Below, piece after piece: positions 7,300 to 60,535 of a stretch of 64,000 bases of DNA. The stretch covers positions 68,013-132,012 of the forward strand of contig LCHW01000001.1 of NCBI GenBank assembly GCA_001000675.1, written 5' to 3'. Every line of letters begins with the position of its first letter. Within the stretch, counting starts at the first letter, position 1. The notes beneath the pieces are model-generated. The model did not search any database. It was not told where the DNA came from and saw only the letters and a list, made by a program, of their open reading frames with translations. The translations under genes were made by a program, and so were the position numbers. The DNA comes from Candidatus Wolfebacteria bacterium GW2011_GWE2_44_13 (lineage in GTDB: Bacteria; Patescibacteriota; Minisyncoccia; UBA6257; UBA9933).

Positions 7300-7330
7300 A
7301 AAGCGGTTCGCCTTGGCGAACCGCTTTTTG
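7300..7330 (+). terminator. Rho-independent terminator
   Basis: gcggttcgcc-ttg-gcgaaccgc followed by tttttg. Confidence 0.7.
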
Positions 7331-7352
7331 AGTATCCCCAAGTTTTTAGTAT

Positions 7353-7576
7353 TGTCATTCCGGCCTATGCCTGCCTGCCGGTAGGCAGGAGCCGGAATCT
7401 AGTATTCCGCATTGTCATCCTGAGCTTGTCGAAGGATCTGTAGTATGTAAATCATATTCCTCGATAAACTCGGGATGACAGCGCTTCCGGATTGTCATCC
7501 CGTACACAGTTTACGCTGGGTTTATCGAAGTGATACGGGATCCAGGACCCTGTCATTCCCGCGGAGGCGGGAATCC
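7353..7576. repeat. Tandem array of four different hairpin repeats, each led by TGTCAT (7353-7400, 7413-7438, 7493-7543, 7551-7576)
   Basis: Each unit is TGTCAT + stem + loop + complementary stem + C, with unrelated stem sequences. The last unit is the canonical tgtcattcccgcggaggcgggaatc. Confidence 0.7.
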
Positions 7577-7875
7577 ATCTTTTCGTACTTTTTCAAAAAA
7601 GTACGTCAAAAACTTCGAGCGCCGAAAATGGCGGAATAGGCTCGAAAATTTCTAACAAAACTACGAACTCGCTCCTGCGCACCGCTCAGACACCGCAGTT
7701 TTTGAGGAAATTTTTGTCGCCCATTTTGTCCGCCATTTTTACGGATGCTCGGGGGATGTGGGTAAAGAAGGTGGTTTTTGATCCGAAATATTCCCATGTT
7801 CGTAAAAGAGGGGACGCTCTTTCGGAGGGCGTTTTTACAGGCTCATGCGTAAAATACAAAAGAAGGGCACTTGAA
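7577..7875. repeat. Composite roughly 300-bp intergenic repeat element (variant b); related copies at 49267-49590 and elsewhere
   Basis: Shares long identical blocks with 49330-49590 (cgccgaaaatggcggaataggct...ctaacaaaactacgaactcgctcctgcgcaccgctcagaca) and the 3' end atccgaaatattcccatgttcgta with copies at 47.8, 51.2 and 54.3 kb. Confidence 0.7.
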
Positions 7876-7907: not shown

Positions 7908-7980
7908 GCGCCTATAGCTCAGTTGGTAGAGCATCTCGCTTATACCGAGACGGTCCTAGGTTCGAGTCCTAGTGGGCGCA
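7908..7980 (+). tRNA. tRNA-Ile (anticodon TAT)
   Basis: GCGCCTA TA GCTC AGTTGGTA GAGC A TCTCG CTTATAC CGAGA CGGTC CTAGG TTCGAGT CCTAG TGGGCGC A folds as a clean cloverleaf with anticodon loop CUUAUAC. Confidence 0.8.
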
Positions 7981-7984
7981 CAGT

Positions 7985-8335
7985 ATGCAATTATATCTTG
8001 CAATTTTGGCAAAATTTCCTGTGGGCGTGCTTTTAACGCTAGCCGCTGGTTCGGTTATTGTGGGGGATTATTTTGGGAAATTATGGTCCACGCAGCAAAG
8101 GCCGTTATTTTTAGTAATTGCTTTTCTGGGTTATTTTGGATCGGGATTTTTTTATCTCCCTACGCTTTTGCGCGAAGGACTTTTAGTTACTTCAATTATT
8201 TGGAGCCTTCTATCTATTGTTGGGTTTATGGTTATCGGGTTGCTTATTTTTAAGGAAACATTAACCGGTATACAAGCCGTTGGAGTTGGATTTGGAGTAA
8301 TCTCTTTGGTTATTCTTGCTTTTGCATCTCACTGA
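7985..8335 (+). CDS. Small 4-TM membrane protein, SMR/DMT-like
   Basis: 116 aa with four hydrophobic helices; size and topology typical of the SMR/EamA half-transporter family. Confidence 0.4.
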   Translation: MQLYLAILAKFPVGVLLTLAAGSVIVGDYFGKLWSTQQRPLFLVIAFLGYFGSGFFYLPTLLREGLLVTSIIWSLLSIVGFMVIGLLIFKETLTGIQAVGVGFGVISLVILAFASH

Positions 8336-8355
8336 TGTGCGACGTACAATAGAAG

Positions 8356-8391
8356 CATATGGATATATTTTCCCATGGGCTTTGGGCGGGG
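8356..8391 (+). repeat. 36-bp direct repeat (copy 1), identical to 9339-9374; it is a truncated duplicate of the 5' end of the 9341 gene
   Basis: catatggatatattttcccatgggctttgggcgggg occurs twice. Copy 1 encodes MDIFSHGLWAG and hits a stop after 7 further codons. Confidence 0.8.
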
Positions 8392-8561
8392 ACGAATACA
8401 CAAATTTGTTTTAATTTATAAACTTTTTATAACAATGAAATTGCCACTCTGGGGTTTAAGGAGCTTCTAAGGCAAGCGATAAATTTCCATTGACATTCTT
8501 TGTAAGAAATGGTTACATCACATCAGTACTACATATAAAAAATATCTTAGTGGAGGTTGTC

Positions 8562-9260
8562 ATGGCGCTTATTCTGTGGTTCGTGTTCCTGATCGTTGTT
8601 GGCGTAGCCTGTATCAATTTGTATCCGTCTGCGTGTGATTCCGGCAAGATTGGGAATTTCTGGAAGAGAAGACATGCGAAGGTTGTGGCTATCGGTAAAA
8701 GCGCTTTATGGACTCTGTGGGGGATCGCCGTCCTTTCGCCGGTGTACTACGAATTTCCAGCCCACAATTCGGTGGTAGTGACGTTCGATAGGGACCATGT
8801 TGTCGAACATCGGCTTGGTAAGTTCTGTTGGGAGTGGGGGGAATTTTCCAATCTTCCTACTGGCGATATGGCGATTTCAAGTGGCGTGACGTTCCTTACG
8901 GAAAATCCAAAGGTCAGGCATTTGCGGTATTCGCTTAATGCCGGCATCTCGAACCCGGAAGCCTTTTATTCGGTCCCGCTTCGACGTATTAATGCGTCAG
9001 ACGTGGATAGTGAACATGGCGCGGATGCGGCAAGCTTCACGTATTCCCCTGGACGTTCAGTGAAGGAGGAGGTTGAAGCGCTGGTCATCACACAACTATT
9101 CGAATTCAATAACCGGTTTTCGAAGCAGCTCGTCGGGTTCTATAACCCGCTCGATAGTAAGCAGCAACAGGATTTTCGGGCTCTTATCGAACCGTGGCTC
9201 AATGACCAGCTTGCAAAGGATGGCGTCACGGTTGTTGCCAAAAACTTTAAGATCGATTAG
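8562..9260 (+). CDS. Hypothetical membrane-anchored protein, on a segment that looks inserted
   Basis: GGAGG SD before the ATG at 8562 (MALILWFVFLIVVG...). Single N-terminal TM. Higher GC than its neighbours. Confidence 0.45.
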   Translation: MALILWFVFLIVVGVACINLYPSACDSGKIGNFWKRRHAKVVAIGKSALWTLWGIAVLSPVYYEFPAHNSVVVTFDRDHVVEHRLGKFCWEWGEFSNLPTGDMAISSGVTFLTENPKVRHLRYSLNAGISNPEAFYSVPLRRINASDVDSEHGADAASFTYSPGRSVKEEVEALVITQLFEFNNRFSKQLVGFYNPLDSKQQQDFRALIEPWLNDQLAKDGVTVVAKNFKID

Positions 9261-9277
9261 TTCTACCATACAGTATC

Positions 9278-9307
9278 AAGCCGGCTCTCATAGCCGGCCT
9301 TTTTTTG
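9278..9307 (+). terminator. Rho-independent terminator
   Basis: gccggct-ctcat-agccggc followed by ctttttttg. Confidence 0.65.
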
Positions 9308-9340
9308 TTTGGAATTTACGGAACTGCTATACTTATCCAT

Positions 9341-9859
9341 ATGGATATATTTTCCCATGGGCTTTGGGCGGGGGCTGCGGCTCACGCGGTGAATCTTAAA
9401 ACAAAAACAAAAGTTTCTGTTTTAAAAACATTTGGATGGGGTATGTTCCCCGATCTTTTTTCATTTACTATCGCATTTGTTTGGATGTTTGCTACAGGGG
9501 TACAATTCGACGCGAAAAATGCGGAGCCGTTTGGAGGGAATGGACATTTTATTTCGCAGTTAACAAGCACACTCTATAATGTGAGTCATAGCCTGGTTAT
9601 ATTCGCAATTGTTTTTGGATTAGTTTGGGTTTTGTTTAAGCGCCCTGTTTGGGAAATGGGTGGGTGGCTGTTGCATATGCTTATCGACGTGCCAACGCAT
9701 TCGTATGCGTTTTATCCGACACCAATTTTATGGCCAATATCAGGATGGAAGTTTAATGGATTTTCGTGGGACCAGCCATGGTTTATGGTTTTGGATATCG
9801 CAGCGCTTTCTATCGTGTATTTAATTATTTGGTATACATATCAGCAAAAGAAAAAATAA
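9341..9859 (+). CDS. Membrane-bound metal-dependent hydrolase, YdjM/DUF457-like
   Basis: Start MDIFSHGLWAGAAAH (His-rich N-terminus), several TM helices, and conserved His residues (HMLIDVPTHSYAF). Confidence 0.45.
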   Translation: MDIFSHGLWAGAAAHAVNLKTKTKVSVLKTFGWGMFPDLFSFTIAFVWMFATGVQFDAKNAEPFGGNGHFISQLTSTLYNVSHSLVIFAIVFGLVWVLFKRPVWEMGGWLLHMLIDVPTHSYAFYPTPILWPISGWKFNGFSWDQPWFMVLDIAALSIVYLIIWYTYQQKKK

Positions 9860-11852: not shown

Positions 11853-14399
11853 ATGGGCCCTAAATTACTTGATAAACGGAAAAAGAAAGCTCTTAAGATT
11901 ATTAAAAAGCTGAAAGAGCTTTTTCCGGTTTCAAAAATTGCACTAAACTATTCCAATAATTGGGAGCTGCTCGTTGCGGTTGAACTGTCGGCACAATGCA
12001 CTGACAAAAAAGTGAATGAAGTAACGGAGATATTGTTTAAAAAATATAAAACATTGAATGATTACGTGCATGCTGATCCGCGTGCATTTGAAAAAGATAT
12101 TCATGCGACGGGGTTTTATCATAATAAAACGAAAAATATTCTTGCTGCGGCGAAGATGGTGCAAGGCCAATTTGGAGGAGTTGTGCCAAAGACGATGCAG
12201 GAAATGTTAGAGATTCCCGGGGTAGCGCGCAAGACGGCTAATGTTGTACTGGGAAGCGCGTATGGAGTTGTAGAAGGAATCGCGGTTGATACACATGTGA
12301 TACGACTCACGCGATTGTTAGGGCTTACAAGCGAATCGAACCCCGTAAAAATAGAGCGCGATTTAATGGAGATTTTACCGAAAGAAGAGTGGCTCGAATT
12401 CACGTATCGGTTGATCGATTACGGAAGGGCCTATTGCCCTGCTCGAGCACAAAAACTCTCTATAATCATCCCCCTCTTTCTCTTTTTATTACTACCGAAT
12501 AGTTCTTTTGCGCAGCAGCAGGTGTATTCGTATGATGCAATCAATACGACAATTACTGTTAACGGCGATGCAACGTTTACGGTTGAAGAGCAGCAATTGT
12601 TTAATTACGAGGCAGGAACGTTTCATCAAGGGTGGCGCGCTATTTCGCTTGATAAAATAAGCCGCATTACGGATGTGCAGGTTATTGATGGTGCAACAGG
12701 ACAACCATTACAACACAGTAGCCAACGGCTTAATAAAACCGATCCTGATAGCTGGGGAAAATATACAGGGTATACACAGGATGGGAATGTAAACATCGAA
12801 TGGTATTACGACCTTGCTAATACAAAGCACTTGTGGGTATTGCGGTATGTGGTGCACGGCGGGTTCTCGTTCTACAAAGAAAACGATCGATTATATTGGA
12901 ACGCATTAACTGACTATAGCAGTCCTATTGGACTCGCTTCTGTAAAAGTCTTATTCCCTGAGAATGCAGATCTATCTTCTATGCAGTTTGATGCGTATCG
13001 AGAAGATAGTTATGCGATAAATAAAATAGTACAGGGGAATAATAGTATCTATTTTGAAACTCCGTTTATTCAGCCATACGAAGCGTTTACCATAGACATC
13101 GCTTTTCCAAAAGGAATCATAAGTGAATCTGCATTTTGGAAAGAATGGCTTACTGCGTATTGGGGATACGTAGGCTCTGGTATTGCCGCTGTGCTTGGGG
13201 TATTGTTTTCATTATTGTATTGGTATCGCACGGAGCGCTATGGAAAAGGACGTGGCGTTATTATTGCGCAGTACGAGCCGCCGCAGCAATTGCGCCCAGC
13301 GATGGCCGAAGTTTTAGTTAAGGAAAAGATTACGGAAAAAACATGGCCGGCAACAATTATTGACCTTGCGGTTAGAGGGTATATTGCAATCAAAGAAGAG
13401 CCTGAAGATAAACTCGTTGTATTTATACGCCTTTCTCTTGCTGTGATTTTAGTGGGTATCTTAGGAGCTATTAGCGTCCTGGTGCTTTTTGTCGACGTTC
13501 CGTTTGAAGGGAGAATGCCGTTGGTTCTATTTATAGCGGCCCCAATCCTTGTCCTTATTATTGCTTATCGGAAGGAGGGCAGTATTAAAAAATCATTTGC
13601 ACCGAAGAGTTACATTTTAGAAAAAGTAAAGGAATACGAAAACGATCCTAGCCTTGAAGAGTATGAAGTTAAATTCCTGCGGATTATTTTTTCTGGCATC
13701 GACCTAGTAACTAAAGAAAAGAAAAACCATTTTTCGTTAAAAGAGATAAAAAAGAGCTCCTCGTCTCAGAGAGAGCTTGCGCGATTACTTAACCTTCTAA
13801 AGGATGATTTGTATAAGGAGACTGATAAAGACACAAAGGCATTCGAAAAAGCGATACATAAGGAAAAATATTTTATGTTTGTGCTGTTCGGCCTCACCTT
13901 TTTCTTCGCAATGCTTAATAAGATACAAATCATTGATTTGGAAAATCAGCTGCATTTCCTCGTGTTTGTGTGCGCCATTGTTGTAGCTGTTGTGATTGCA
14001 TTTATAAAATTTGAATCGCGGCTTTCGCATGAAGGATATCTCTTAAAAGAAGATTGGCTTGGGTTTAAGCTGTATTTAGAAACGGCAGAAAAATATCGTA
14101 TGCAGAATCTTACGCCTGATATTTTTGAAAAATATCTTCCGTACGCAATGATATTTGGTATTGAAAAAAAATGGGCAAAATCGTTTGAAGGTATACATAT
14201 GCAACCTCCGAGTTGGTACGGATCTTCTTCTGTCGGTATGGCTGCGGGGATTTCTTCTGGCACATCTTTTTCCCCAGTTGGTTTTAGCTCAAGTTTCTCG
14301 TCTTCTTTTTCAAGTGCCTTTGCGTCGGCAGGGGGAGGCGGGGGAGGAGGTGGATCTGCGGGCGGAGGAGGTGGAGGCGGAGGAGGTGGTGCGAGCTAG
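11853..14399 (+). CDS. Apparent in-frame fusion: endonuclease III-like HhH-GPD domain (aa 1-215, no FeS loop) + DUF2207 membrane protein with a C-terminal poly-Gly/Ser tail
   Basis: N-terminus is Nth-like (LLVAVELSAQCTDKKVN, GVARKTANVVL, AVDTHV). After ...DYGRAYCPARAQK it runs straight into a signal-peptide-like LSIIIPLFLFLLLPNSSFAQQ. TM helices follow, then WLGFKLYLETAEKYRMQ...FEKYLPYAMIFG and a SSSFSSSFSSAFASAGGGGGGGGSAGGGGGGGGGGAS tail typical of DUF2207. Confidence 0.6.
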   Translation: MGPKLLDKRKKKALKIIKKLKELFPVSKIALNYSNNWELLVAVELSAQCTDKKVNEVTEILFKKYKTLNDYVHADPRAFEKDIHATGFYHNKTKNILAAAKMVQGQFGGVVPKTMQEMLEIPGVARKTANVVLGSAYGVVEGIAVDTHVIRLTRLLGLTSESNPVKIERDLMEILPKEEWLEFTYRLIDYGRAYCPARAQKLSIIIPLFLFLLLPNSSFAQQQVYSYDAINTTITVNGDATFTVEEQQLFNYEAGTFHQGWRAISLDKISRITDVQVIDGATGQPLQHSSQRLNKTDPDSWGKYTGYTQDGNVNIEWYYDLANTKHLWVLRYVVHGGFSFYKENDRLYWNALTDYSSPIGLASVKVLFPENADLSSMQFDAYREDSYAINKIVQGNNSIYFETPFIQPYEAFTIDIAFPKGIISESAFWKEWLTAYWGYVGSGIAAVLGVLFSLLYWYRTERYGKGRGVIIAQYEPPQQLRPAMAEVLVKEKITEKTWPATIIDLAVRGYIAIKEEPEDKLVVFIRLSLAVILVGILGAISVLVLFVDVPFEGRMPLVLFIAAPILVLIIAYRKEGSIKKSFAPKSYILEKVKEYENDPSLEEYEVKFLRIIFSGIDLVTKEKKNHFSLKEIKKSSSSQRELARLLNLLKDDLYKETDKDTKAFEKAIHKEKYFMFVLFGLTFFFAMLNKIQIIDLENQLHFLVFVCAIVVAVVIAFIKFESRLSHEGYLLKEDWLGFKLYLETAEKYRMQNLTPDIFEKYLPYAMIFGIEKKWAKSFEGIHMQPPSWYGSSSVGMAAGISSGTSFSPVGFSSSFSSSFSSAFASAGGGGGGGGSAGGGGGGGGGGAS

Positions 14400-46354: not shown

Positions 46355-47572
46355 ATGTTTAATCTATTCAAAAAAAATCCCGAAACCATATCGCGCACTA
46401 CTCCTGGATTCGAAGAAGCAGAGCGACGCACGCCAACGGTAGGTATTATCCTACTCATCCTTATGTTTATCGCAGGTATTTATTTTGGCTTGTTTGCAAT
46501 GAGCGATATTGCAAATATTCCTGATAGACCAGCGTCGCTATCGAGCTGTTCGTATAAATATCAAACGGACACAACCGGGCGCACAATATATGACGCAAAA
46601 TATCCAACATATTACGAAGAGGATGTTATTAATTCGCTGGCATATGAAAATTCAAAAAATTGTGCAGTTCAATTGAGCCCACTTGAAGATACTGCGGGTG
46701 TCAGTGCGCTCTTCACTAAGCGTATTGCAATCGAAGCAAAAATCGACCCGATTGCATCTGAATATGTTGATCTACAACAGCAAGTAAACAAGATTCAAAG
46801 TCAGATTCAACGTGCAACAGGAGAGTATGGCGTTGGGTTGCAGGAAAAAGAAGCGGGAATTACAGAGCCAGTATTCCCGACAGCTCCATCACAGCAGTCA
46901 ATTGTTGAGCTGCGAAAACAAGAAGCGCCGATGCTTGCGCGCATGAGTGTGTTGAAGGGGCAGGTGGATGCGCTAAAGCCTTCGCTTGATGCAGTTGATG
47001 CTGAATTAGTTACCGCATACAAACCAGTATTCAAAGCATTTGAACGCGCAATGCGATGGTATGAATTTAAAGTATTCTTGCTACAGTTCTTATTGCTCAT
47101 CCCATTCTTCTTCCTTGCGCTTCGTAAATATCTCGAATTACATCGCAAGAACAGTCCGTATACTGTTATTCTTACCACGATTGTTGCGGTGCTAGGATTG
47201 CTTCTTTTAAAAACGATTCTCTTCTGGTTCTGGGGATTGTTCCTTGAAGAAATATTGCGTGTCCTTGTTGTGTGGTTTGGGAAATACAACATTTTCCGAT
47301 CACTACTATTCTACTTTGGCATGTTCTTCTCCTTTGCGATTTTCGGTGGCGCTGTGTATTTCTTGCAAAAGAAAATATTTGACCCTCGTCGTGTGACGAT
47401 TCGTCGATTCCGTTCTAAGGAATGTCCACAGTGTCAGACAAATCTTGATTTGTCTGCTGAATACTGTCCGAATTGTGGAGCCCATATTCGCACCACCTGT
47501 GCACATTGCAGTAAAGATCGCTATATTGGATTGCCGTTTTGTCCGCATTGTGGGGATAAGAGTGAGGTGTGA
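46355..47572 (+). CDS. Membrane protein with coiled-coil region and a C-terminal double zinc ribbon
   Basis: TM near the N-terminus, a coiled coil (QQQVNKIQSQIQRATG), four TM helices, then CPQC...CPNC...CAHC...CPHC. Confidence 0.45.
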   Translation: MFNLFKKNPETISRTTPGFEEAERRTPTVGIILLILMFIAGIYFGLFAMSDIANIPDRPASLSSCSYKYQTDTTGRTIYDAKYPTYYEEDVINSLAYENSKNCAVQLSPLEDTAGVSALFTKRIAIEAKIDPIASEYVDLQQQVNKIQSQIQRATGEYGVGLQEKEAGITEPVFPTAPSQQSIVELRKQEAPMLARMSVLKGQVDALKPSLDAVDAELVTAYKPVFKAFERAMRWYEFKVFLLQFLLLIPFFFLALRKYLELHRKNSPYTVILTTIVAVLGLLLLKTILFWFWGLFLEEILRVLVVWFGKYNIFRSLLFYFGMFFSFAIFGGAVYFLQKKIFDPRRVTIRRFRSKECPQCQTNLDLSAEYCPNCGAHIRTTCAHCSKDRYIGLPFCPHCGDKSEV

Positions 47573-47589
47573 AAATGAAATAGAAAACA

Positions 47590-47618
47590 AAAGGGACGCA
47601 TATGCGTCCCTTTTGTTA
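47590..47618 (+). terminator. Rho-independent terminator
   Basis: aaagggacgcatatgcgtccctt followed by ttgttatttt. Confidence 0.65.
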
Positions 47619-47639
47619 TTTTCGTGAATACGGGGATCT

Positions 47640-47865
47640 ATTTCCTTGTTCTTTTTTAAAAAAGAACCAAAAATCACGAACCGAAAATATTTTGGGGTCG
47701 CCTCCAAAACGGCTGAAGCTCGGAACTCGCACGCCAAGAGTAGGCTCGCTCAAACACCGAGCTTCTTTCGATATTTTTCCAGCGCCCTTGATCCGAAATA
47801 TTTCCATGTTCGTACGAAGGGGGAAGTCCCTATCTTTGTCATTCCCGCGGAGGCGGGAATCTATT
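47640..47865. repeat. Composite intergenic repeat element (variant a) ending in the R1 hairpin tgtcattcccgcggaggcgggaatc (47837-47861)
   Basis: Shares ccgaaaatatttcgg...gaagctcggaactcgcacgccaag...caccgagcttctttcgatatttttccagcgccct.gatccgaaatatttccatgttcgta with 51.05-51.19 kb and 54.19-54.33 kb. Confidence 0.7.
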
Positions 47866-47927
47866 TAATAAAATCAATATAGGTGATATTTGGCCAACTG
47901 AGGCTATCTACTGTATAATGAATTATT

Positions 47928-49184
47928 ATGAAATCATACGAAAAGATAGCAAAAATATTGCGCACCGATCAGGACACAATCCGCGTCGTGGAAGAGCGCC
48001 TCTCCGCTTTAACGGGGAAGGTTGGTGTGCTTGATAAAGTCATGGAAGAAAACTGGACTGCAATCCAGGGAAGGTTGAATATTCTTGGACTCACGCGCGA
48101 GTCTTCTGCAAAAGAAATTTATGATGCGCTTATTAGTAAGATAGAAGCCGATGACGCGAGCTTTTATAATGCGCTTGGCAAGCCGCAAGTAACTGAGCCA
48201 GATGATTGGCAGCGTGTTTTGAATATTATCGTCGAGGCCATCAAACCGCCTAAGGGATTTTTCTTAAAAAAAGAAAAAGCGATAGAGTTTTTGCGTGCCG
48301 AGCCTCCGACGAAGGTTATTGAGGCACTCGGGTATGATACCGTAGATCAATTGATTGAGCAGGAGGATCTTATGGAAATATATTGTGCGTTGCGATTCTT
48401 ACAGGGAGGAGAGTGGCTCAATACTGTATTCTTCAAACAATACGAGAAAGTAACCCCTGAGGACTTCGAAGAGCGTGATATTACGCCTATTGCATTGCAA
48501 AAGAAATGGGGAGTGCTTGCGGAGGGCTTCATGAAAAAGAAGTACCATAACATCAGCCACTTAAAGGAAATGGGAATTATTTATGTTATCCCATTGCCGC
48601 TTGAAATCTCTGGGGAAACATTGCGCAACCTCGCGTTGCTATTGCACTACTTTAACGAAATTCCTTTCTATACAAGTATTATCAAGAAGTTTTCAGGCAA
48701 TCCGGAAACGTTTGTAGAAAACTTAAAATCGCTCTTGCGTGGAGATGTGCTTGACGTGCAACCAGTAGCAGAAGGGGATAAAATGCCGTGGATGGTTGTG
48801 CAACGATACCTTGCAAAAGATGATGAATTTGACTGGCGCTTGTTTGCCCCTCATATCAATCCAGAAGCTTTGCATTGGGAGAAGGCCGAACATCAGCTTA
48901 TGGCAGTTGCCCGTTCAATTGATGGATTTTCTACCGACCTCGCATTTTGGAAGAATTTAAACTGGGTTGGTGATTACTTCAAGAGTGATGCCGGCATTGA
49001 TGTGTTGGTAAGTTTTAACCTTGTTGATACTGCTATGGCATTGGTACAGCAGAAAGAGATGGTTAAATACCTGTATCACCACCAAGAATCCATGTGGAAC
49101 AAAATATTTTTGGAATATTTCGGACAAGAAGAAATGGAAGAAATGATGAAGGAATATATTGTGAAGGGGTATATGGAGATATAA
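47928..49184 (+). CDS. Hypothetical cytoplasmic protein
   Basis: 418-aa ORF; no motif recognised. Confidence 0.4.
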   Translation: MKSYEKIAKILRTDQDTIRVVEERLSALTGKVGVLDKVMEENWTAIQGRLNILGLTRESSAKEIYDALISKIEADDASFYNALGKPQVTEPDDWQRVLNIIVEAIKPPKGFFLKKEKAIEFLRAEPPTKVIEALGYDTVDQLIEQEDLMEIYCALRFLQGGEWLNTVFFKQYEKVTPEDFEERDITPIALQKKWGVLAEGFMKKKYHNISHLKEMGIIYVIPLPLEISGETLRNLALLLHYFNEIPFYTSIIKKFSGNPETFVENLKSLLRGDVLDVQPVAEGDKMPWMVVQRYLAKDDEFDWRLFAPHINPEALHWEKAEHQLMAVARSIDGFSTDLAFWKNLNWVGDYFKSDAGIDVLVSFNLVDTAMALVQQKEMVKYLYHHQESMWNKIFLEYFGQEEMEEMMKEYIVKGYMEI

Positions 49185-49215
49185 GAGAGAGCTCGCTAGC
49201 TCGTAAGGAAAGCAC

Positions 49216-49665
49216 AAAGGAGCGCGTACGCGCTCCTTTGTCATTCCCGTGAAAACGGGAATCCATCTCCTCTGCACTTTTTCAAAAAAGTGTATCCGTC
49301 GGATTCGGAATGGAATAAGCGAATCCGACAGCCCGGCACGTTGCACGCTTGCTTCGCTCGCTAGCAACGCCAAGGGCAAAACTTCGAGCGCCGAAAATGG
49401 CGGAATAGGCTCTAAAATTTCTAACAAAACTACGAACTCGCTCCTGCGCACCGCTCAGACAACGTAGTTTTTGACCTGCCTGCCGGTAGGCAGGGGAAAT
49501 TTTTATCGCCTATTTTGTCCGCCATTTTTCGGATGCTCGGGGGATACAGATTAATACAGTTTATTAATCCGAAATATTTCCATGTTTGTACATAGAATGC
49601 GCTACCGTTGTCATTCCCGTGCATTGCCTTGTCGTAGCTTTACGCGAAGACAGGAAAACGGGAAT
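49216..49665. repeat. Composite intergenic repeat: hairpin, R1 (49239-49266), variant-b module (49267-49590), and a long-loop R1 (49603-49665)
   Basis: Near-identical to 7577-7875 over more than 150 bp, and to the 50.94-51.05 / 54.10-54.19 kb modules (gtcggattcgg...cgaatccgacagcccggcacgttgcacgctt). Confidence 0.7.
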
Positions 49666-49706
49666 CCATATATCGCAATATATGCTAATTTTGGTATACT
49701 AAACGC

Positions 49707-50381
49707 ATGAACTTTCTGGTACTTCTTCTCGGGTTAATTCCTAGCTTTATTTGGCTTAGTTTTTTCTTGCAAGAAGATATTCATCCTGAGCCACGAAAGA
49801 TGATTTTTGCCGTTTTTATTACCGGAGCGCTTGCAGCGTTGGGTGCATATTTTATTCAGTTATGGCTAAGTGGTTATTTCCCTGCGGGCAGCGAGTTTAC
49901 GCATTCCTTACTCTATATTGCTGCATTTGCAGGAGTGGAAGAGTTTGTTAAATTTCTAGCCACATATACCGTTATTTGGCGAAGTGCCTATTTTGATGAG
50001 CCAATCGATGCAATGGTGTATATGATGACGGCTGCAATGGGCCTTGCTGCTGTTGAAAATATTGCAATCGCATTTGATACAGGCATTGCGGCGATTACGG
50101 TTGGTTCGCTTATGTTTCGTTTTCTTGGAGCAACGCTTTTACATGCATTAAGTTCACTCGTGATGGGATATTATTGGGGCAGAGGTATTATTAAAAAGCA
50201 TACTGCCATCTATCTTATGTGGGGTTTTATTATGGCAACGTTATTACATACCATCTTCAATTATCTTATTGTTGTATTTGACGCTGGTATTTTATATGCC
50301 ATTGGCGTGTTAATTCTTGCCGCATTCTTTGTATTTTATGATTTTGAAAAGCTTAAGAAAAATGATACTATTACCGTATGA
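49707..50381 (+). CDS. PrsW-family intramembrane metalloprotease
   Basis: EEFVKF, FDEPIDAMVY, AAMGLAAVEN and a conserved His (LHALSS) match PrsW (PF13367) motifs. Confidence 0.7.
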   Translation: MNFLVLLLGLIPSFIWLSFFLQEDIHPEPRKMIFAVFITGALAALGAYFIQLWLSGYFPAGSEFTHSLLYIAAFAGVEEFVKFLATYTVIWRSAYFDEPIDAMVYMMTAAMGLAAVENIAIAFDTGIAAITVGSLMFRFLGATLLHALSSLVMGYYWGRGIIKKHTAIYLMWGFIMATLLHTIFNYLIVVFDAGILYAIGVLILAAFFVFYDFEKLKKNDTITV

Positions 50382-50866
50382 ACAATGATACTAAAAAATT
50401 CTTTGAGAAACTGGCGGGAGTATCCGAACAGGAGGAATTTGAACCTCGATTGGCAAAGGTTGCTGCGGTAACCCCAACACAAGAAGAGGATGAGGAAATG
50501 GAAGATGAAGAGCAAGAAGGGGATTTCGAAGAAGGAGAAGGACAGCTTGCAATCGACGTGTACCAAATGGGAAATGATATTATCATTGAAGCCCCTGTTG
50601 CAGGAGTTGGTATGGACGACCTCGACCTTGAAATATCGCCCGAGTCTGTTGCAATTCGTGGAAAACGAGATCAACGCGAAAAAATAGCAGATAACGATTA
50701 TCTCTATCAGGAATGTTATTGGGGTAAGTTTTCTCGATCAATTATTCTTCCACAAGAAATTAATCCTGATCATGCAACCGCAACATTCAAAAATGGCGTT
50801 TTGCGCATTACCTTGCCTAAGGTGAATAAACAAAAGATGAAGAAGGTGAAGGTGAGATTTGAATAA
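50378..50866 (+). CDS. Hsp20/alpha-crystallin family small heat-shock protein
   Basis: C-terminal ATFKNGVLRITLPK (AxxxxGVLxxxxPK) plus an ACD beta-sandwich region. Start overlaps the PrsW stop. Confidence 0.8.
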   Translation: MNNDTKKFFEKLAGVSEQEEFEPRLAKVAAVTPTQEEDEEMEDEEQEGDFEEGEGQLAIDVYQMGNDIIIEAPVAGVGMDDLDLEISPESVAIRGKRDQREKIADNDYLYQECYWGKFSRSIILPQEINPDHATATFKNGVLRITLPKVNKQKMKKVKVRFE

Positions 50867-50873
50867 GAACGAT

Positions 50874-50900
50874 TAAAAAACCGACGTACGTCGGTTTTTT
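50874..50900 (+). terminator. Rho-independent terminator
   Basis: aaaaaaccgacgtacgtcggttttttt. Confidence 0.75.
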
Positions 50901-50907
50901 TGTAGTG

Positions 50908-51195
50908 TTATCCCCGTGAAAACGGGAACCCAGGTTTTCGCACTTTTTCAAAAAAGTACCTCCGTCGGATTCGGAATGGAATAATCGAATCCGACAGCCC
51001 GGCACGTTGCACGCTTACTTCGCTCGCTAGCAACGCCAAGGGCAAAACTTCGAACCGAAAATATTTCGGGGTCGCCTCCAAAACGGCAGAAACTCGGAAC
51101 TCGCACGCCAAGAATAAGCGTGCTCAAACACCGAGCTTCTTCCGATATTTTTCCAGCGCCCTTTATCCGAAATATTCCCATGTTCGTAAATAAAG
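50908..51195. repeat. Composite intergenic repeat (degenerate R1, palindrome gtactttttcaaaaaagtac, hairpin gtcggattcgg..cgaatccgac, variant-a 3' module)
   Basis: Collinear with 54070-54330 at high identity. Confidence 0.7.
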
Positions 51196-51275
51196 AATAT
51201 TATTTTTTGCTTGTGCGAGGATAACGTACTGTGCAGTATAAAAAACGATTCACTGAGTGAATCGCTTTTTCTTGT

Positions 51276-51357
51276 GTGCCCAGGAGAGGAATCGAACCTC
51301 CACTGATTTCTCAACACGATTTTGAGTCGTGCGCGTCTACCAATTCCGCCACCCGGG
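51276..51357 (-). tRNA. tRNA-Leu (anticodon CAA), type II
   Basis: Reverse complement is GCCCGGG TG GCGGAATTGGTAGACGC GCACGA CTCAAAA TCGTG TTGAGAAATCAGTG GAGGTTCGATTCCTC TCCTGGGC A. Confidence 0.85.
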
Positions 51358-51440
51358 CTTCATAAAACTATACGTATAGTATAGGGGAATTTATTTTTTT
51401 GTCAAAAACGCCCCGTATCGTGTGATACGGGGCTGTAGAT

Positions 51441-52274
51441 CTATCCTTCGAGCGCGTCCGGGGGGTGCGTAATCGGAGTGATTGAGAGAAATTGCTCAAA
51501 GCCCAAGGCTTCAAAGTAGTTCTGGATTTCCGTTCCGGCCGCTGACAGACACATCTGATGTGCATATGGCATATATGCGTCGATGGTAAGTATATTGCCG
51601 GCGGCAAAGTTTCTGTTGACCGCCGCCGCAACCATTCGGCTTAATGATGGAATCGATAGCGACTTAAAACTGAACTGCAAGTTTCGATCGTCGTCGAGAA
51701 GGAGGTATTGCGGTAATCCGTGTTGCTCCGCAATGATCGCTCCGAGCCGGTGATGGTGGAGACTAATGAAACGGCTCCGTAGCTTGGTATCTGCCTTGTG
51801 CTGATAGAGTGCTCCGACGAGGCGCCCGATGGGCAGGAATAATCCGCTAACCTCTGCTTTCCAGACATCTTCCGGCGGTAACTGCATCTGACGAGCCATG
51901 ATGCGTGAGATAACAGCCATGGCACAGCATTTTGCGCCAAGGATTTTCGTATTTGGATACTCGTGTGATGCACACAGGATGCTGATACCAACAAGCAGCG
52001 CTTTGCACTCATCGATTCCCATCGCATTCGCGATGTCCTGCAGCTCCTGCGGGCCTACAGATTTTTTCATGGGGAGCGCCGTTCGCATGATCCCCAAGAG
52101 GCGATCCGAGGTATTAAGGCAAACAATCTTCTTTAGCTCGACCAGCCACATTGCTCGTTCGCGTGCCTGCTTAAGGGCATTTACCGCGTGTTGTGCGCAT
52201 TCTGGATGCGCCTGCGTTACAATCTCGCGCAATTGCTTGTCGATTTGAGGCGTAGGGGCACTTATCTTCTTCAT
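51441..52274 (-). CDS. HDOD-like (HD-related output domain) signalling protein
   Basis: Start MKKISAPT with an SD (aggaaagga) upstream. Helical HD-like region with HHHRLGAIIAEQHGLP. Confidence 0.4.
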   Translation of the reverse strand: MKKISAPTPQIDKQLREIVTQAHPECAQHAVNALKQARERAMWLVELKKIVCLNTSDRLLGIMRTALPMKKSVGPQELQDIANAMGIDECKALLVGISILCASHEYPNTKILGAKCCAMAVISRIMARQMQLPPEDVWKAEVSGLFLPIGRLVGALYQHKADTKLRSRFISLHHHRLGAIIAEQHGLPQYLLLDDDRNLQFSFKSLSIPSLSRMVAAAVNRNFAAGNILTIDAYMPYAHQMCLSAAGTEIQNYFEALGFEQFLSITPITHPPDALEG

Positions 52275-52740
52275 AACTAGTTCCTTTCCTTTGCATAATT
52301 GTGGGGTACTAATTTCATATATACTCCTGTCGGAGGTATTTTTCAATACCCTAATGTGGAACAAATTGTCAAATATATCGTTATATCTAGTATTAGCACT
52401 ATATTCGCTATGAAACACATGCAATCACAACAATCTTATGTGCTCGGCAATAACCAGCCTATTACCTTCTTTGCAAAAGGTAATACTTTTTGCTTACTGG
52501 TTGGCCAAGGCTGTGTTTCTCGATATTGTGCACACTATCTTCCTATATAGTACGTGCGTGTATTGTGCGAAGACGATCTCGGCCAAATAGAAAGCCGAGA
52601 TTTTTTGTACGCAATCTATTTGGGGATAGCACATTGATAACTATATATAGGAAGGCTTGTTTGAGAAGGGGAGTGTTTCACATATTGCTTGGCGGATAAG
52701 ATTTATTAACCAGCAGCATAACCAAGAAAGAGGTGCAACC

Positions 52741-53958
52741 ATGAAAGGAAGTGAACTGAAGAAGCGGGTTTGTCGATTGATGTGGCTGTATTTTTTCATC
52801 ACGTTTACGTTTGGGTTTGGCCACGCATTTTTCTTCTCCACCTACTCCATCTACCTTATGAGTAAGGGGTTGGACCTGTTACAGATCAACGTCGTTAACT
52901 GCGTATTCATGGCCTCGGTATTCTTGTTGGAAATTCCAACGGGAGCATACGCCGACTTGTTTGGTCGCAAGCGTTCGTTTGTGACAAGCTGCTTCGTGTA
53001 TGGGCTTGCTATGATTATCTATTGGCAGGCTGATTCATTCTGGATCTGTATTGTTGCAGAATTGTTTGCTGCTCTTGGGGCGGCGCTACACTCGGGGGCT
53101 ATGGAAGCTTGGATCGTCGATTCAATGCGCATCGCAGGGCATCGCGGAGGATTGCGAACCCTTTTTCGCAGAGAGCATTACGTATCGCAAGTCGGTATTG
53201 TGGGAGGAAGTCTACTGGGTGCATATATTGCCCAATATGATCTCTCGCTTCCATGGCTTGTTGCGGGGGTATCGATGATTTTAGTTGGCATCTTTGCATC
53301 GTATGCTATGCAAGAAACTCCCATAACTGCACGAAAGACTCTGTCTGGTTTTGCATCTATAGGGCTCATTACTCGGGATAGCATTACCTACGGTGTGCGA
53401 CACAAAGGCGTCTTGTACATTATTTTATTTGGTAGTGTTTGCGCACTCTGTGTTCAGACAATGAACATGCAATGGCAAATACGCTTCATGCAGGATTTTT
53501 CTTTTAACCCGCGTCACCTTGGATGGACCTTTGTTGGCATCTCCCTCTTCATCATGATTGGCAATCGGCTTTCGACGAAACTCTCCTCACGATTTGGAAA
53601 GGGTCGGCGAGCGATTGTGCTATCACAATGCTTTACCGCAGGAGGCATTATTGCCGCCGGTTGGTTTACCTCAGTCGCTCCTGTCTTGATTGCATTTTAT
53701 GTGCACGAGATGGGGCGGGGTATGTTCGCACCACTCAAACGTGCGTACATGAACGAACGTATTCCGAGTGCGACACGCGCAACCATTTTATCGTTCGATT
53801 CGATGGTTGCGCATAGCGGAGCTTTTCTCGGATTACTCGGTAGTGGGCTTATTGCGAAACATTGGTCCATTGCCACTTCTTGGATGACTTCCGGCCTTTT
53901 GTTGATCGTTGCCATTCCCGTTTTCCTTTTCTTGAAGAATGGAGATGGAAACAAGTGA
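52741..53958 (+). CDS. MFS transporter (12 TM)
   Basis: Start MKGSELKK. Motif A-like GRKRSF (LFGRKRSFV) between TM2 and TM3. Twelve hydrophobic segments. Confidence 0.75.
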   Translation: MKGSELKKRVCRLMWLYFFITFTFGFGHAFFFSTYSIYLMSKGLDLLQINVVNCVFMASVFLLEIPTGAYADLFGRKRSFVTSCFVYGLAMIIYWQADSFWICIVAELFAALGAALHSGAMEAWIVDSMRIAGHRGGLRTLFRREHYVSQVGIVGGSLLGAYIAQYDLSLPWLVAGVSMILVGIFASYAMQETPITARKTLSGFASIGLITRDSITYGVRHKGVLYIILFGSVCALCVQTMNMQWQIRFMQDFSFNPRHLGWTFVGISLFIMIGNRLSTKLSSRFGKGRRAIVLSQCFTAGGIIAAGWFTSVAPVLIAFYVHEMGRGMFAPLKRAYMNERIPSATRATILSFDSMVAHSGAFLGLLGSGLIAKHWSIATSWMTSGLLLIVAIPVFLFLKNGDGNK

Positions 53959-53999
53959 GTACATAATGGCACCCAATACGGGTGCCATTTTTTTACATT

Positions 54000-54410
54000 G
54001 GCATTCCTGCCCGTTCGACAGGTTTAGGGTAAACTGCGGCGGGAATCCATTACCACTTCTAAGACAATATTCTTTCATACTTTTTAAAAAAGTACTTCCG
54101 TCGGATTCGTGTCGGAGTAATCGAATCCGACAGCCCGGCACGTTGCACGCTTACTTCGCTCGCTAGCAACGCCAAGGGCAAACCTTCGAACCGAAAATAT
54201 TTCGGGGTCACTTCCAAAACGGCTGAAGCTCGGAACTCGCACGCCAGGGGTAGGCGTACTCAGACACCGAGCTTCTTTCGATATTTTTCCAGCGCTCTTA
54301 ATCCGAAATATTTCCATGTTCGTAGATACAAGAGAGTAATTCTGTCATTCCCGCGGAGGCGGGAATCTATTTAATTCTGGATTCCCGCCTCCGCGGGAAT
54401 GACAGAAAGC
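54000..54410. repeat. Composite intergenic repeat, plus a 68-bp perfect palindrome formed by two inverted R1 hairpins (54343-54410)
   Basis: tgtcattcccgcggaggcgggaatctatttaattctggattcccgcctccgcgggaatgaca is self-complementary. The module at 54070-54330 matches the 47.6 and 51.0 kb copies. Confidence 0.75.
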
Positions 54411-54490
54411 ATTCGCCCTTTACTTTTGTGTGGGCTCGTAGGTATAGTAGAGACAGCAGTTACACAACGAGGAGGGGAGTGGAGGTGCGT

Positions 54491-54892
54491 ATGAATAAAA
54501 GGATGTTGTTTTTCGTTGCATTCGCAATGGAGGATCAAAATCGACGGGCTGTATATGCTGTCGAGGATATCGGCGGGTGCATAACCCTGAGCGAAAAGAT
54601 GGCGAAGGGAAGAAATCCGGCTGGTCTCTTGGGAACAAAGGTTCCGCTTAGCCTGGTCGCATTTGATCGGGGGCGGGTATTTTTTCACCTGAGTAGCGAA
54701 ATCGTTGAAAGTCCTGTTGCAGGCATCTTTGCCTCACTTGAACAGGCAATCCCGTGCTTTGATGCCGAACAGCTCGAAGTGCTCGATATGCGGTGGCTCG
54801 AGGAGACGATGCGCTGCGTTGTAACGATGCAGAAGCCTTTTCCGCAAGCGGGGCAATGCCGCGGAAATTGTGGACAGGCTGGTTGTTTGTAA
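54491..54892 (+). CDS. Hypothetical protein, GC-rich
   Basis: Start MNKRMLFFVAF. Composition unlike its neighbours. Low confidence that it is a real gene. Confidence 0.3.
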   Translation: MNKRMLFFVAFAMEDQNRRAVYAVEDIGGCITLSEKMAKGRNPAGLLGTKVPLSLVAFDRGRVFFHLSSEIVESPVAGIFASLEQAIPCFDAEQLEVLDMRWLEETMRCVVTMQKPFPQAGQCRGNCGQAGCL

Positions 54893-54989
54893 AGCAGGAT
54901 ACGGGGCGCTTATTGCGCCCCTTTTTAATTCGGCAATCTAGTATTCATGCGGTATTATCCTATTCGGCAATAATACTATTGCCTAATAT

Positions 54990-55100
54990 GTTTTATCTAT
55001 TGCCGAATAAAAAGACTCTGGGTTCCTGTTTTCACGGAAATGACAATACAAAAGAATATAGCGAAAAATTCTGACATTCCCGCGCAGGCGGGAATCTAGC
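54990..55100. repeat. Two R1 hairpin copies (one inverted: ttcctgttttcacggaaatgaca; one direct: tgacattcccgcgcaggcgggaatc)
   Basis: Sequence match to the R1 consensus. Confidence 0.6.
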
Positions 55101-55171
55101 GCAACACACACTTCCCCCCCCTGCCGAACCCATGGTTGACACCTTGCCGAATTACCCTGTATCATACCCCC

Positions 55172-56173
55172 ATGATTAGTAACTACGAGTTTATCAAGAC
55201 GCAGGCATTCGAAGTTTCGTCTGCACTATTTCGGTGCACCGAATTATTTTCTCAAGACAAATTGCGCGCAGAAATTGAAGCTGCTGCAGTTGATATGGTC
55301 GCAGATTATGAAACAATACACAGCACAATAGGGGATGAATTTCCTCGTATTGAGAAGTTGATTGCACTTATCCGATTAGCGGAATCTACCGGACAAATTG
55401 CATCCATTAATGCGAACGTACTGTATCGAGAACTTGATAACCTTACTAAGGCGATTCGGTTAGAAGTTGTTGACCGCCGCGAACGGAAAAACATCACGGC
55501 ATCTTTGGAAAAGATGTTCACAAATTCCGAATATGCAAAGAAGCTCGCCACTACTGCAACGGTACTAAGTGAGCCAGTTAATTCGGCAACTACACCTTCT
55601 CCTACTCCTGTCATTCCCGTGAATATGGCAATCCAGAGCCCTGATAATTCGGCAAAACAAAAATTAAGCGATACTCAGTTCGGCAATATTGAATCCCTGC
55701 TTTCTGCAGCGGTCCAATCGAGTCAGGCAATGGAAGCCTTAGCAGCTCCTGTTAATCCGGCAACAGTTCCTGTACACGAAACGCTTAACGCGTTTTTGCG
55801 ACAAGACGTTCCGGCAAACGCGACACAGGGGGCTTCGGCAACTACCGAACCCACTCTTGCTAAACAGGGAAATGCAATCCAGCAGGCAACGGCGACCACG
55901 GCCGTTCGTCCGGCAATTGCTCCTGTGCAAGCTACTTCGGCAAACCCAGCGCAAGTCGGTTCGGCGAGCTCACCACAAGTAGGTTCATGGCAGCATGTCA
56001 TTTTACAAAAAGTGAAGGAGCTCGGCCAAACAACAACAAAAGAGTTAACTGCCAGCTTCCCAGAAATCAGCGAACGAACTATTCGTTTCTATCTGCAAAA
56101 GCTTGTTGATAACCAGGCAATAGATCGTATTGGTTCAACTGGTCCAGGAGCAGCATATCGAGCTAAAATATAA
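55172..56173 (+). CDS. Hypothetical protein with a C-terminal winged-helix DNA-binding domain and a central Ala/Pro/Thr/Gln low-complexity region
   Basis: C-terminal ...LGQTTTKELTASFPEISERTIRFYLQKLVDNQAIDRIGS resembles DeoR/MarR-type wHTH. The start is probably MISNYEF. Confidence 0.4.
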   Translation: MISNYEFIKTQAFEVSSALFRCTELFSQDKLRAEIEAAAVDMVADYETIHSTIGDEFPRIEKLIALIRLAESTGQIASINANVLYRELDNLTKAIRLEVVDRRERKNITASLEKMFTNSEYAKKLATTATVLSEPVNSATTPSPTPVIPVNMAIQSPDNSAKQKLSDTQFGNIESLLSAAVQSSQAMEALAAPVNPATVPVHETLNAFLRQDVPANATQGASATTEPTLAKQGNAIQQATATTAVRPAIAPVQATSANPAQVGSASSPQVGSWQHVILQKVKELGQTTTKELTASFPEISERTIRFYLQKLVDNQAIDRIGSTGPGAAYRAKI

Positions 56174-56214
56174 CCATCAAAAATCCGCCAAAAGGCGGAT
56201 TTTTGATACCATGA

Positions 56215-56245
56215 CATTGTCATTCCCGCGGAGGCGGGAATCCAG
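56215..56245. repeat. R1 hairpin repeat
   Basis: ttgtcattcccgcggaggcgggaatccag. Confidence 0.7.
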
Positions 56246-56374
56246 TATTCCCTAGTATATTACAGGGTATCCTCGCCTTCGGGAGGATAACGCCTTCTTG
56301 CTGTGAAACAATCCGCAAATACCCACGTTATCTTGTAGTATGGATGCATACTAGTCACAAACTGGTCTCAGTTG

Positions 56375-56402
56375 TTGACAAAGTGCATACATACTTTACA
56401 AT
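56375..56402 (+). promoter_or_regulatory. Strong sigma70-type promoter TTGACA-16-TACAAT
   Basis: Consensus -35, and a near-consensus -10 at 56397-56402. It lies roughly 400 nt upstream of the large surface-protein gene. Confidence 0.5.
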
Positions 56403-56409
56403 AAGTATA

Positions 56410-56700: not shown

Positions 56701-56740
56701 CTGAAAAAACGAAAAGCGAACAATGAATGATTGGATTGGT

Positions 56741-56775
56741 ATTCCCGTGAAAGCGGGGATTCATCCCCATGAATC
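56741..56775. repeat. R1-like hairpin variant (attcccgtgaaagcgggga-ttcatccccatgaatc)
   Basis: Match to the R1 family, with a second small hairpin. Confidence 0.5.
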
Positions 56776-56805
56776 TCGTTGCCGCTGAAAACGAAAAAAA
56801 TTAAA

Positions 56806-60490: not shown

Positions 60491-60535
60491 TTTCACCAGT
60501 CCGTAGCTTTATGCGTAGGATGGTTTGTGTTTTTT

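Follow-up and report, generated by a model that had tools for sequence, protein, structure and literature searches.

The stretch of DNA analyzed here (64 kb, hereafter the window) belongs to Candidatus Wolfebacteria GW2011_GWE2_44_13, an uncultivated bacterium of lineage UW32 whose sequence comes from groundwater metagenomes; the assignment follows from exact protein matches (locus tags UW32_C0001G0066 and G0067). Our subject is a single gene that sits between two copies of a short direct repeat at the start of a ydjM-like membrane protein gene. The repeat, CATATGGATATATTTTCCCATGGGCTTTGGGCGGGG, is an exact 36-nt sequence found twice in the window, at positions 8356–8391 and 9338–9373 of the + strand. 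No further copy was found there when up to three mismatches were allowed, and none of 100 dinucleotide-preserving shuffles produced such a pair. An earlier note on this DNA had reported the pair and read the arrangement as either a gene-cassette insertion with a long target duplication or an illegitimate-recombination event. The pair is real, but its second copy had been placed one base too far downstream, at 9339–9374, and the segment between the copies, given there as 947 bp at 8392–9338, is 946 nt long and spans 8392–9337. The features of the locus are as follows.

7908–7981, + strand: tRNA-Ile(tat) (ARAGORN; Rfam tRNA, 72.9 bits), part of the conserved flank FtsH – tRNA-Ile – 116-aa gene – ydjM, which has the same order in the compared loci L017 and L176.
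7985–8335, + strand: upstream flanking gene from the list of open reading frames (ORFs), encoding a small membrane protein of 116 aa with weak EamA/SMR-like similarity (Pfam EamA E = 0.036, below the cut-off).
8321–8350, + strand: promoter-like TTTGCA-18-TACAAT upstream of the stub, in its native context and of putative function (consensus scan and sequence check).
8356–8391, + strand: left repeat copy, a remnant of the start of ydjM (codons 1–11 and the 3 nt before them), directly after the 116-aa gene in ancestral context.
8359–8421, + strand: stub ORF of 20 codons, MDIFSHGLWAGTNTQICFNL and a stop, in which ydjM codons 1–11 are fused to insert bases (read from the sequence).
8392–9337, + strand: inserted segment (segment X), 946 nt, missing from the syntenic locus of GWB1_47_1-type genomes.
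8490–8518, + strand: the insert gene's own promoter, TTGACA, a 17-nt spacer and the extended -10 element TGgTTACAT (sequence check).
8562–9260, + strand: insert gene with a GGAGG ribosome-binding site, encoding a membrane-anchored protein of 232 aa with a predicted distant SPFH/Band-7 fold (ORF and structure prediction).
9280–9308, + strand: intrinsic terminator downstream of the insert gene, GCCGGCTCTCATAGCCGGC and then a T run (terminator scan; hairpin at 9280–9298).
9305–9333, + strand: promoter-like TTGTTT-17-TATACT at the insert end, 7 nt before the ydjM ATG, a candidate only, seen by sequence check and under the threshold of the scan tool.
9338–9373, + strand: right repeat copy, the true 5' end of the ydjM-like gene.
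9341–9859, + strand: intact gene for a YdjM-like membrane protein of 172 aa (weak Pfam YdjM match), the insertion target.

The two repeat copies differ in role as the earlier note had described. The right copy contains the start codon (ATG at 9341) of the intact YdjM-like ORF and is the real gene start, and the left copy opens the truncated 20-codon ORF in the ancestral upstream context. The description of the insert as one GC-richer gene with a terminator also holds, and the gene has its own promoter as well. Its G+C content is 0.499, compared to 0.439 ± 0.035 for 46 window genes (z = 1.7), and its third-position G+C content (GC3) is 0.567, compared to 0.393 ± 0.073 (z = 2.4); the ORF is therefore a moderate compositional outlier. 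A search for inverted repeats returned a single result, the CATATG-centered palindrome TATCCATATGGATA at the right junction. The empty site would read ...ACAATAGAAG, repeat, GCTGCGGCTCAC..., and a hypothetical circular form of the segment would read ...CTATACTTATC, repeat, ACGAATACACAAATT....

The earlier note had proposed that empty and filled sites be compared in related genomes. The YdjM-like protein matches Pfam PF04307 over residues 1–156 (profile positions 1–145 of 176) with E = 2.6e-4 and 21 bits against a cut-off of 29, carries the UniRef label membrane-bound metal-dependent hydrolase, and has 69 relatives in genome collections and 135 in metagenome collections. These scans yielded about 150 ydjM loci, among which only one other genome type, Wolfebacteria GWB1_47_1 (CP011209), shares gene order with the window; its YdjM is 74% identical. 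The GWB1_47_1 locus (L017, L086–L090) reads FtsH – tRNA-Ile(tat) – 116-aa gene – 21-nt spacer – ydjM – DUF3850, with the 116-aa gene orthologue (67.5% identical) directly before ydjM, and both the insert and the repeat are absent. Because a genome with the same order has an empty site, the segment in the window is an insertion. It also follows that the left repeat copy keeps its ancestral upstream surroundings and that the ancestral gene runs on from the right copy. Among 151 ydjM loci tested for a 5' duplication, only five copies of the window's own region carry it, and a gene of the insert family adjoins ydjM at none of the other ydjM loci (about 150).

The structure is supported by independent assemblies. 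The repeat-insert-repeat block is identical in a 541-kb MEGAHIT contig built at k = 127 (L001) and in a 59-kb contig built at k = 141 from a different sample (L002). Each junction is also spanned by a JGI contig, the left by L008 and the right by L006, and a Logan unitig at k = 31 covers exactly 8362–9367, as expected from a 36-nt repeat. An assembly artefact, in the form of a graph loop through the short repeat or a chimeric join, could be suspected because Logan k = 31 contigs end within the repeat and because LCPN01000016, a public contig of another bin, appears chimeric and changes genome type within ydjM. However, assemblies with k far above the repeat length give the same structure from different samples, each junction is crossed by a separate JGI contig, and a diverged sister lineage has the same architecture in six assemblies. 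Since four or more independent assemblies carry the repeat, and the six of lineage UT41 agree, we reject this explanation and give it a negligible probability.

Other irregularities were seen in these assemblies. The contig LCPN01000016.1 (L175; GCA_001003645.1, bin GW2011_GWE1_48_7) opens, within positions 1–850, with the last 78 codons of a window-type insert gene. Its ydjM is of window type over 144 residues and of GWB1_47_1 type over the last 32, and GWB1-type genes come next. The contig is either an assembly chimera over a conserved stretch in a bin of 7x coverage or a genuine inter-species recombinant. At position 12451, the window lacks 48 nt that are present when the population is reassembled at k = 127 (L001, L007), which seemingly makes a single 848-aa ORF (11853–14399) out of two genes, one EndoIII-like (211 aa) and one of the DUF2207 type (663 aa); a contig of a third assembly stops nearby. 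This is probably an assembly or gap-closure difference.

The insertion is also present in a second lineage, UT41, where a cluster look-up found a variant of the insert protein with a ydjM variant immediately after it. Six UT41 assemblies (GCA_000993695.1 and five others) contain the same insertion with the same junctions, and over the surrounding 20 kb UT41 and the window are 87–89% identical at the nucleotide level. The site is thus filled at identical junctions in two lineages and empty in a third. Because UT41 shares site and junctions despite this divergence of the flanks, the insertion dates from before these two species-level lineages parted, barring two separate acquisitions.

The stub in UT41 has the same length and reads MDIFSHGLWVVAGTQICFNL and a stop. 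The window stub matches the window's functional copy at 36/36 positions, yet the UT41 stub matches its own functional copy at only 27/36; the two functional copies agree at 35/36 positions and the two stubs at 26/36. The UT41 stub retains a perfect block at repeat positions 3–23, with mismatches confined to positions 1–2 and 24–36 (Fisher p = 3e-4). Relatives that have the arrangement but no repeats would, according to the earlier note, have spoken against its reading, and UT41 goes half of that way, with the insertion in place and its stub decayed. The single difference between the functional copies lies at repeat position 12, is synonymous (A in UW32, T in UT41) and is mirrored by the stub of each lineage. 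If there was a single ancestral insertion, this mirrored allele and the pattern of identity suggest that the stub has been converted by the functional copy. Under that view, gene conversion of the UW32 stub is most likely, with a shorter tract probable in UT41, and the perfect 36-nt repeat in the window is most likely a product of conversion rather than a mark of recent insertion. An original duplication of 48 nt instead of 36 nt is unsupported, as the next 8 nt after the repeat match between stub and functional copy at 2/8 positions in UW32 and 4/8 in UT41.

Divergence between the lineages is uneven along the locus. We counted 27 differences in the 96 nt of 8302–8397, 0 in the 178 nt of 8398–8575, 28 in 8576–8974 and 8 in 8975–9462, and beyond 9462 about 15% of positions differ. 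The whole insert is about 96.6% similar between the lineages, compared to 87–89% in the flanks. Synonymous divergence (dS) is 0.19 in the 5' half of the insert gene and 0.03 in its 3' half; in ydjM it is 0.08 for codons 1–41 and 0.97 for codons 42–172. The flanking genes give 0.12 (FtsH), 0.22 (TrxR) and 0.31 (116-aa gene). The value for the 5' half of the insert gene is near those of the flanking genes and so agrees with an insert that was already in place when the lineages separated. Gene flow at a later time, between populations that co-occur, would account for the near-identical tracts, and for the zero-difference tract at 8398–8575, mostly non-coding insert, recent gene flow ending at the insert edge appears the likeliest source. 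We also considered a structured RNA in the 170-nt insert leader, which is 100% conserved from 8398 on, and rejected it: folding gave z-scores of -0.19 and +0.58, and Rfam gave only sub-threshold matches, around the terminator.

The search of the 8562–9260 protein that the earlier note had advised gave nothing from Pfam (E ≤ 0.1) or PHROG and no credible PADLOC match, and a defense-system or phage-family cargo was rejected since PADLOC hits were at noise level and PHROG had none. Homology and structure were more informative. A word-indexed search recovered only three homologues (52–53% identity), and a full HMMER search with a profile of those three recovered 350 cluster representatives of about 200–240 aa. 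AlphaFold2 given 88 family sequences returned a model with pLDDT 91.7 (four sequences had given pLDDT 49), with N-terminal helices at residues 3–20 and 39–57. When the model was compared with the PDB by Foldseek, the best 28 matches were all SPFH proteins (stomatin, HflK/C, prohibitin, flotillin), with a best E of 1e-4, probabilities of 0.99–1.00 for the top 16 and TM-scores of about 0.4. Consistent with an SPFH assignment, the protein has a weak profile match to HflK (E = 0.055), two of the 88 family members weakly match Band_7 (PF01145) at E < 0.01, although the insert protein itself does not, and its UniRef label is Band 7 domain-containing protein. On the predicted structure, the insert protein is a short, divergent, membrane-anchored protein with a distant SPFH/Band-7 fold. 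Like stomatin, HflK/HflC, prohibitin and flotillin, it would be anchored in the membrane by its N-terminus, with an alpha/beta SPFH-like domain and helices behind the anchor. At 232 aa, however, it falls far short of HflK in length and has no long coiled-coil region, and it differs from the established families in falling below Pfam Band_7 detection with TM-scores of only about 0.4. The gene has a dN/dS of about 0.19 relative to UT41, a value that indicates purifying selection. SPFH proteins are known partners of FtsH in other organisms, and the ftsH gene lies about 1.3 kb upstream of the present site; a functional tie between the two is speculation.

In other genomes the homologue has a different home. 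In GWB1_47_1-type genomes it adjoins a 134-aa gene, DksA and ComM, beside tRNA-Glu and RecG, and in three more distant genomes it lies between UvrD and either ComM or an SNase gene. Homology between the insert and these loci covers only about 8488–9306, that is, promoter, 5' untranslated region (5' UTR), ORF and terminator. Upstream of the homologues, L009, L014 and L016 all retain the promoter TTGACA-17-TGnTTACAT and the 5' UTR block CAGTACTACA...ATATCTTA, and a hairpin is conserved in the position equivalent to the insert terminator. No flanking repeats were found around homologues in L009, L014, L016 or L166–L168. In UT41's own assembly (GCA_000993695.1, contig 3, L170), only tRNA-Glu occupies the canonical position, between a 497-aa gene and the 135-aa, DksA and ComM genes. 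A contig (L169) from the sample that yielded the window shows this arrangement as well; it is 99.5% identical to L170 there and has the G+C content of the window and its hairpin repeat family. Absence of the insert gene from its usual place, together with its presence at ydjM, points to relocation, or to loss plus gain.

We also looked for machinery that could have moved the segment. Pfam, PHROG and PADLOC searches of the 946-nt insert found no recombinase or transposase and no second ORF with a family match. No recombinase was found among ten unassigned window ORFs, in a scan that covered part of the window and none of the rest of the genome. The insert has no terminal inverted repeats, its ends ACGAATAC... 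and ...CTTATC do not pair, and it contains no attC-like imperfect inverted repeat. No second copy was detected in the window or in the roughly 180 loci compared. The repeat and the protein had no match in IMG/VR, and the GenBank phage and PLSDB plasmid collections had none either; a phage or plasmid origin was rejected on these grounds. Two features of the locus do resemble att-type integration, namely that direct repeats bound the segment and that the right copy restores the ydjM start. The event is nevertheless unique, its ends carry no element signatures and only a short piece of the target is duplicated, all of which agree with a recombinase-independent duplicative insertion.

Taken together, these observations identify the segment as a real, old and fixed scar of a known kind of event and not as a demonstrable mobile cassette. 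For its origin we favor, at a little better than an even chance, a one-off, recombinase-independent duplicative insertion that relocated or replaced the SPFH-like gene in the common ancestor of UW32 and UT41, with the stub later refreshed by conversion. A chromosomal module of about 0.95 kb (promoter, SPFH-like gene and terminator) would have inserted once, 33 nt into the ydjM-like gene, by duplicative illegitimate or short-homology recombination and with no dedicated recombinase. At least 34–36 nt of the ydjM 5' end would have been duplicated in the process, such that the gene remained whole with the downstream copy as its start, and the upstream copy was reduced to the 20-codon stub. The gene would thereby have moved, or been replaced, from the UvrD/ComM/DksA neighborhood to its place downstream of ftsH, and the functional copy would later have overwritten the stub to give the perfect repeat seen today. 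Template switching during replication, with the module copied and ydjM re-entered about 36 nt upstream, could have produced this outcome, as could a single crossover of a circularized fragment or an illegitimate join during uptake of foreign DNA. Single crossover of circular molecules has been shown experimentally to duplicate the homologous segment in the absence of a site-specific recombinase (PMC3240628). Documented duplicative recombination (circle crossover, template switching, homology-facilitated events) likewise involves one-off foreign or relocated DNA, no recombinase gene, a short target duplication and unmarked ends. In the present case, by comparison, neither the donor molecule nor junction microhomologies are visible, and the insertion dates far back, with a repeat that seems to have been re-homogenized since; the duplications documented in E. 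coli span 109–950 bp, compared to about 36 bp here. The illegitimate-recombination option of the earlier note is thus the one we prefer.

Several points weigh against this reading. The divergence between lineages steps from 27/96 nt to 0/178 nt exactly at the stub/insert junction, and plain vertical descent predicts otherwise; such a sharp step either requires extra gene flow between the lineages or favors independent insertions. A stub carrying its own lineage's allele is also expected if the target was duplicated afresh in each lineage, and 36 nt is near the lower limit for RecA-dependent conversion. The first 97 nt or so and the last 30 nt or so of the insert have no counterpart in the roughly 180 loci compared, such that their origin is untraced and donor microhomology is not visible. 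(In L009, the sequence that follows the homologue looks by eye like these last ~30 nt, but 28% of shuffles scored equally well, and the likeness was dropped.) The contig L169 is linked to the window genome by sample, composition and shared repeats only, and not by assembly. Finally, the insert protein is 52% identical to its closest homologue, compared to 67–74% for the flanking genes, and its GC3 is high, which makes acquisition from an unsampled lineage an alternative to a move within the genome.

Independent insertions with fresh target duplication are the main rival to a single insertion followed by conversion. The segment could be a non-autonomous, site-specific cassette, moved either by an integrase acting in trans on flanking att sites or by a transposase that makes long duplications, which entered ydjM separately in an older event in UT41 and a recent one in UW32. 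We consider this unlikely, even though the direct repeats with a restored gene end have the layout of attL and attR, each stub bears its own lineage's allele at repeat position 12, divergence falls to 0/178 at the insert boundary within a segment more similar (about 96.6%) than its flanks (87–89%), and the insert end supplies the target gene with the promoter-like TTGTTT-17-TATACT. Long target duplications are moreover known from the insertion sequences IS1634 and IS1549, which make direct repeats of variable length from 8 to 514 bp, including tens of bp as here (PMC2266710). The window segment differs from these elements in having no transposase, no terminal inverted repeats and a single copy. 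Nor was a recombinase found in its 946 nt or in the ten unassigned window ORFs scanned, an attC-like site is absent, only one site is occupied with the other ydjM loci (about 150) unoccupied, and the viral, phage and plasmid collections hold no relative. These same findings argue against the gene-cassette option of the earlier note. Promoter, ORF and terminator are instead homologous to an ordinary chromosomal gene in a conserved neighborhood of relatives, the dS of 0.19 in its 5' half agrees with divergence of the insert gene alongside the host, and the 8 nt beside the stub differ between the lineages at 4 positions although they would belong to the supposed element.

Comparison with known cassette types leads in the same direction. 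Integrative elements that are flanked by att sites and lack an integrase of their own, the cis-mobilizable elements (CIMEs), and decayed genomic islands resemble the segment in that direct repeats flank it, one within a gene whose frame is restored, and in carrying a single accessory-looking cargo gene with its own promoter and terminator. Here, however, no integrase, no partner element at the same site and no evidence of excision were found, the target is the 5' end of a protein gene and not the 3' end of a tRNA gene, and the cargo's homologue in the clade is an ordinary chromosomal gene. An integron gene cassette consists of a promoterless ORF with attC near intI and attI, whereas the insert gene has its own promoter and terminator, no attC and housekeeping flanks.

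A GIY-YIG gene in a related genome has been counted in favor of a cassette as a second case of the same layout. In the GWB1_47_1-type locus L009 (8915–9345, minus strand), an 84-aa GIY-YIG ORF lies directly upstream of tRNA-Glu(ttc), and ahead of the ORF stand a 45-nt second copy of the 5' part of this tRNA (84% identical) and a GC-rich hairpin; the UT41 and UW32-type loci (L170, L169) have tRNA-Glu and no GIY-YIG insert. As in the window, a 5'-end stub, one gene and an intact target follow one another. Both cases could belong to a single-gene cassette type of the candidate phyla radiation (CPR) that enters the 5' end of a gene, regenerates it by a 35–50-nt duplication and brings an outward promoter, with ydjM entered twice; this strikes us as improbable, more so than the cassette just discussed.

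Natural transformation offers another route, which we rate as unlikely to about the degree of twofold cassette entry. In homology-facilitated illegitimate recombination, incoming DNA of a relative that already had the SPFH-like gene before ydjM would have paired within ydjM at the right, and an illegitimate join at the GC-rich ...GGGCGGGG, 36 nt into the recipient's ydjM, would have left the recipient's first 36 nt as the stub. The mechanism is documented in naturally competent bacteria (PMC3240628). In its favor, the right-hand high-identity tract extends about 125 nt into ydjM (dS 0.08 for codons 1–41 against 0.97 for the rest), as a recombination tract would, the left junction is the most GC-rich spot of an AT-rich region, and both the UT41 assembly and a contig from the window's sample contain a gene for a ComM homologue. 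Yet no gene of the SPFH-like family adjoins ydjM in about 150 ydjM loci, so that no donor arrangement is known; the origin of the gene-before-ydjM order is merely shifted to the donor, and the shared allele at repeat position 12 still requires gene conversion or parallel change. The filled state could also be ancestral and the GWB1_47_1 site secondarily emptied by a precise deletion between the direct repeats. Recombination across a 36-nt repeat would leave a clean empty site, and only one syntenic outgroup lineage is at hand. We judge this very improbable, as GWB1_47_1 has the SPFH-like gene at the position adjacent to ComM and DksA, more distant genomes have it in that neighborhood too, and UT41 and the near-identical contig from the window's sample lack it at the canonical position. 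The gene would need to have been gained at ydjM and lost there again, with a separate copy at the canonical site besides, and the original insertion event would still have to be explained.

Whatever its route, the insertion would have rewired transcription of the locus. Judging from its motif and position, the TTTGCA-18-TACAAT site probably served ydjM as its promoter before the insertion and would now drive transcription of the stub and onward into the insert; the insert gene likely keeps its own promoter. Now behind a terminator, ydjM may depend on read-through or on the TTGTTT-17-TATACT at the insert end as a replacement promoter. The native upstream/start sequence of ydjM, GTACAATAGAAGCATATGGATAT (8344–8367), closely resembles GTATAATAGAGCATATGGATAT (L169, 7036–7058), the sequence around the start of the 135-aa gene that adjoins the canonical site. 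We dropped this likeness as evidence because the motif CATATGGATA recurs, with four plus-strand copies in the window, and chance or a shared promoter or leaderless-start motif is possible.

Other repeats were noted in and around the window. The hairpin repeat family TGTCATTCCCGCGGAGGCGGGAATCC has 13 copies, at 7300–7860 and 47500–61000, together with larger shared intergenic modules such as one of 97 nt at 97% identity (7609–7705 and 49378–49474) and a 261-nt unit in three copies. The family also occurs in UT41 (L170) and looks like an element of the repetitive extragenic palindrome (REP) or miniature inverted-repeat transposable element (MITE) kind that appears active in the window's lineage. 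From the FtsH stop codon to the 116-aa gene there are 725 nt in the window and 186 nt in UT41, in which the block between ftsH and tRNA-Ile is missing. An indel of about 940 bp between ComM and UvrD (L170, 9534–10471; L169, 9530) separates strains that are 98–99.5% identical; it contains a 134-aa ORF and ends in a hairpin repeat of this family. Two identical copies of a 39-nt perfect palindrome, TTTGTTACAATATTTCGCGACCGCGAAATATTGTAACAA (61000–61038 and 61787–61825), bracket a 194-aa ORF (61164–61748) with a PaaX_M (Cas2-like) domain (E = 5.7e-14), another single gene between exact repeats; the palindromes might serve as operators or terminators, or might mark the ends of an element. A 9-nt tandem repeat, ACTCCAGTA, present in about seven copies at 57232–57294, lies inside a 1065-aa ORF (56806–60003) and predicts a short repeated peptide.

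The repeat-flanked gene looked like a fresh mobile-element insertion and proved to be an old, fixed rearrangement, which closes that lead. The perfect identity of a short flanking repeat is an unreliable clock: UT41 has the decayed state, and the window copy would have been refreshed by gene conversion or gene flow. The analysis also predicts an SPFH/Band 7 fold for small membrane proteins that had no annotation, a family of about 350 clusters. For the organism itself, the locus provides a clean, dated example of a CPR bacterium with a small genome relocating or replacing a gene with no recognizable mobile-element machinery.

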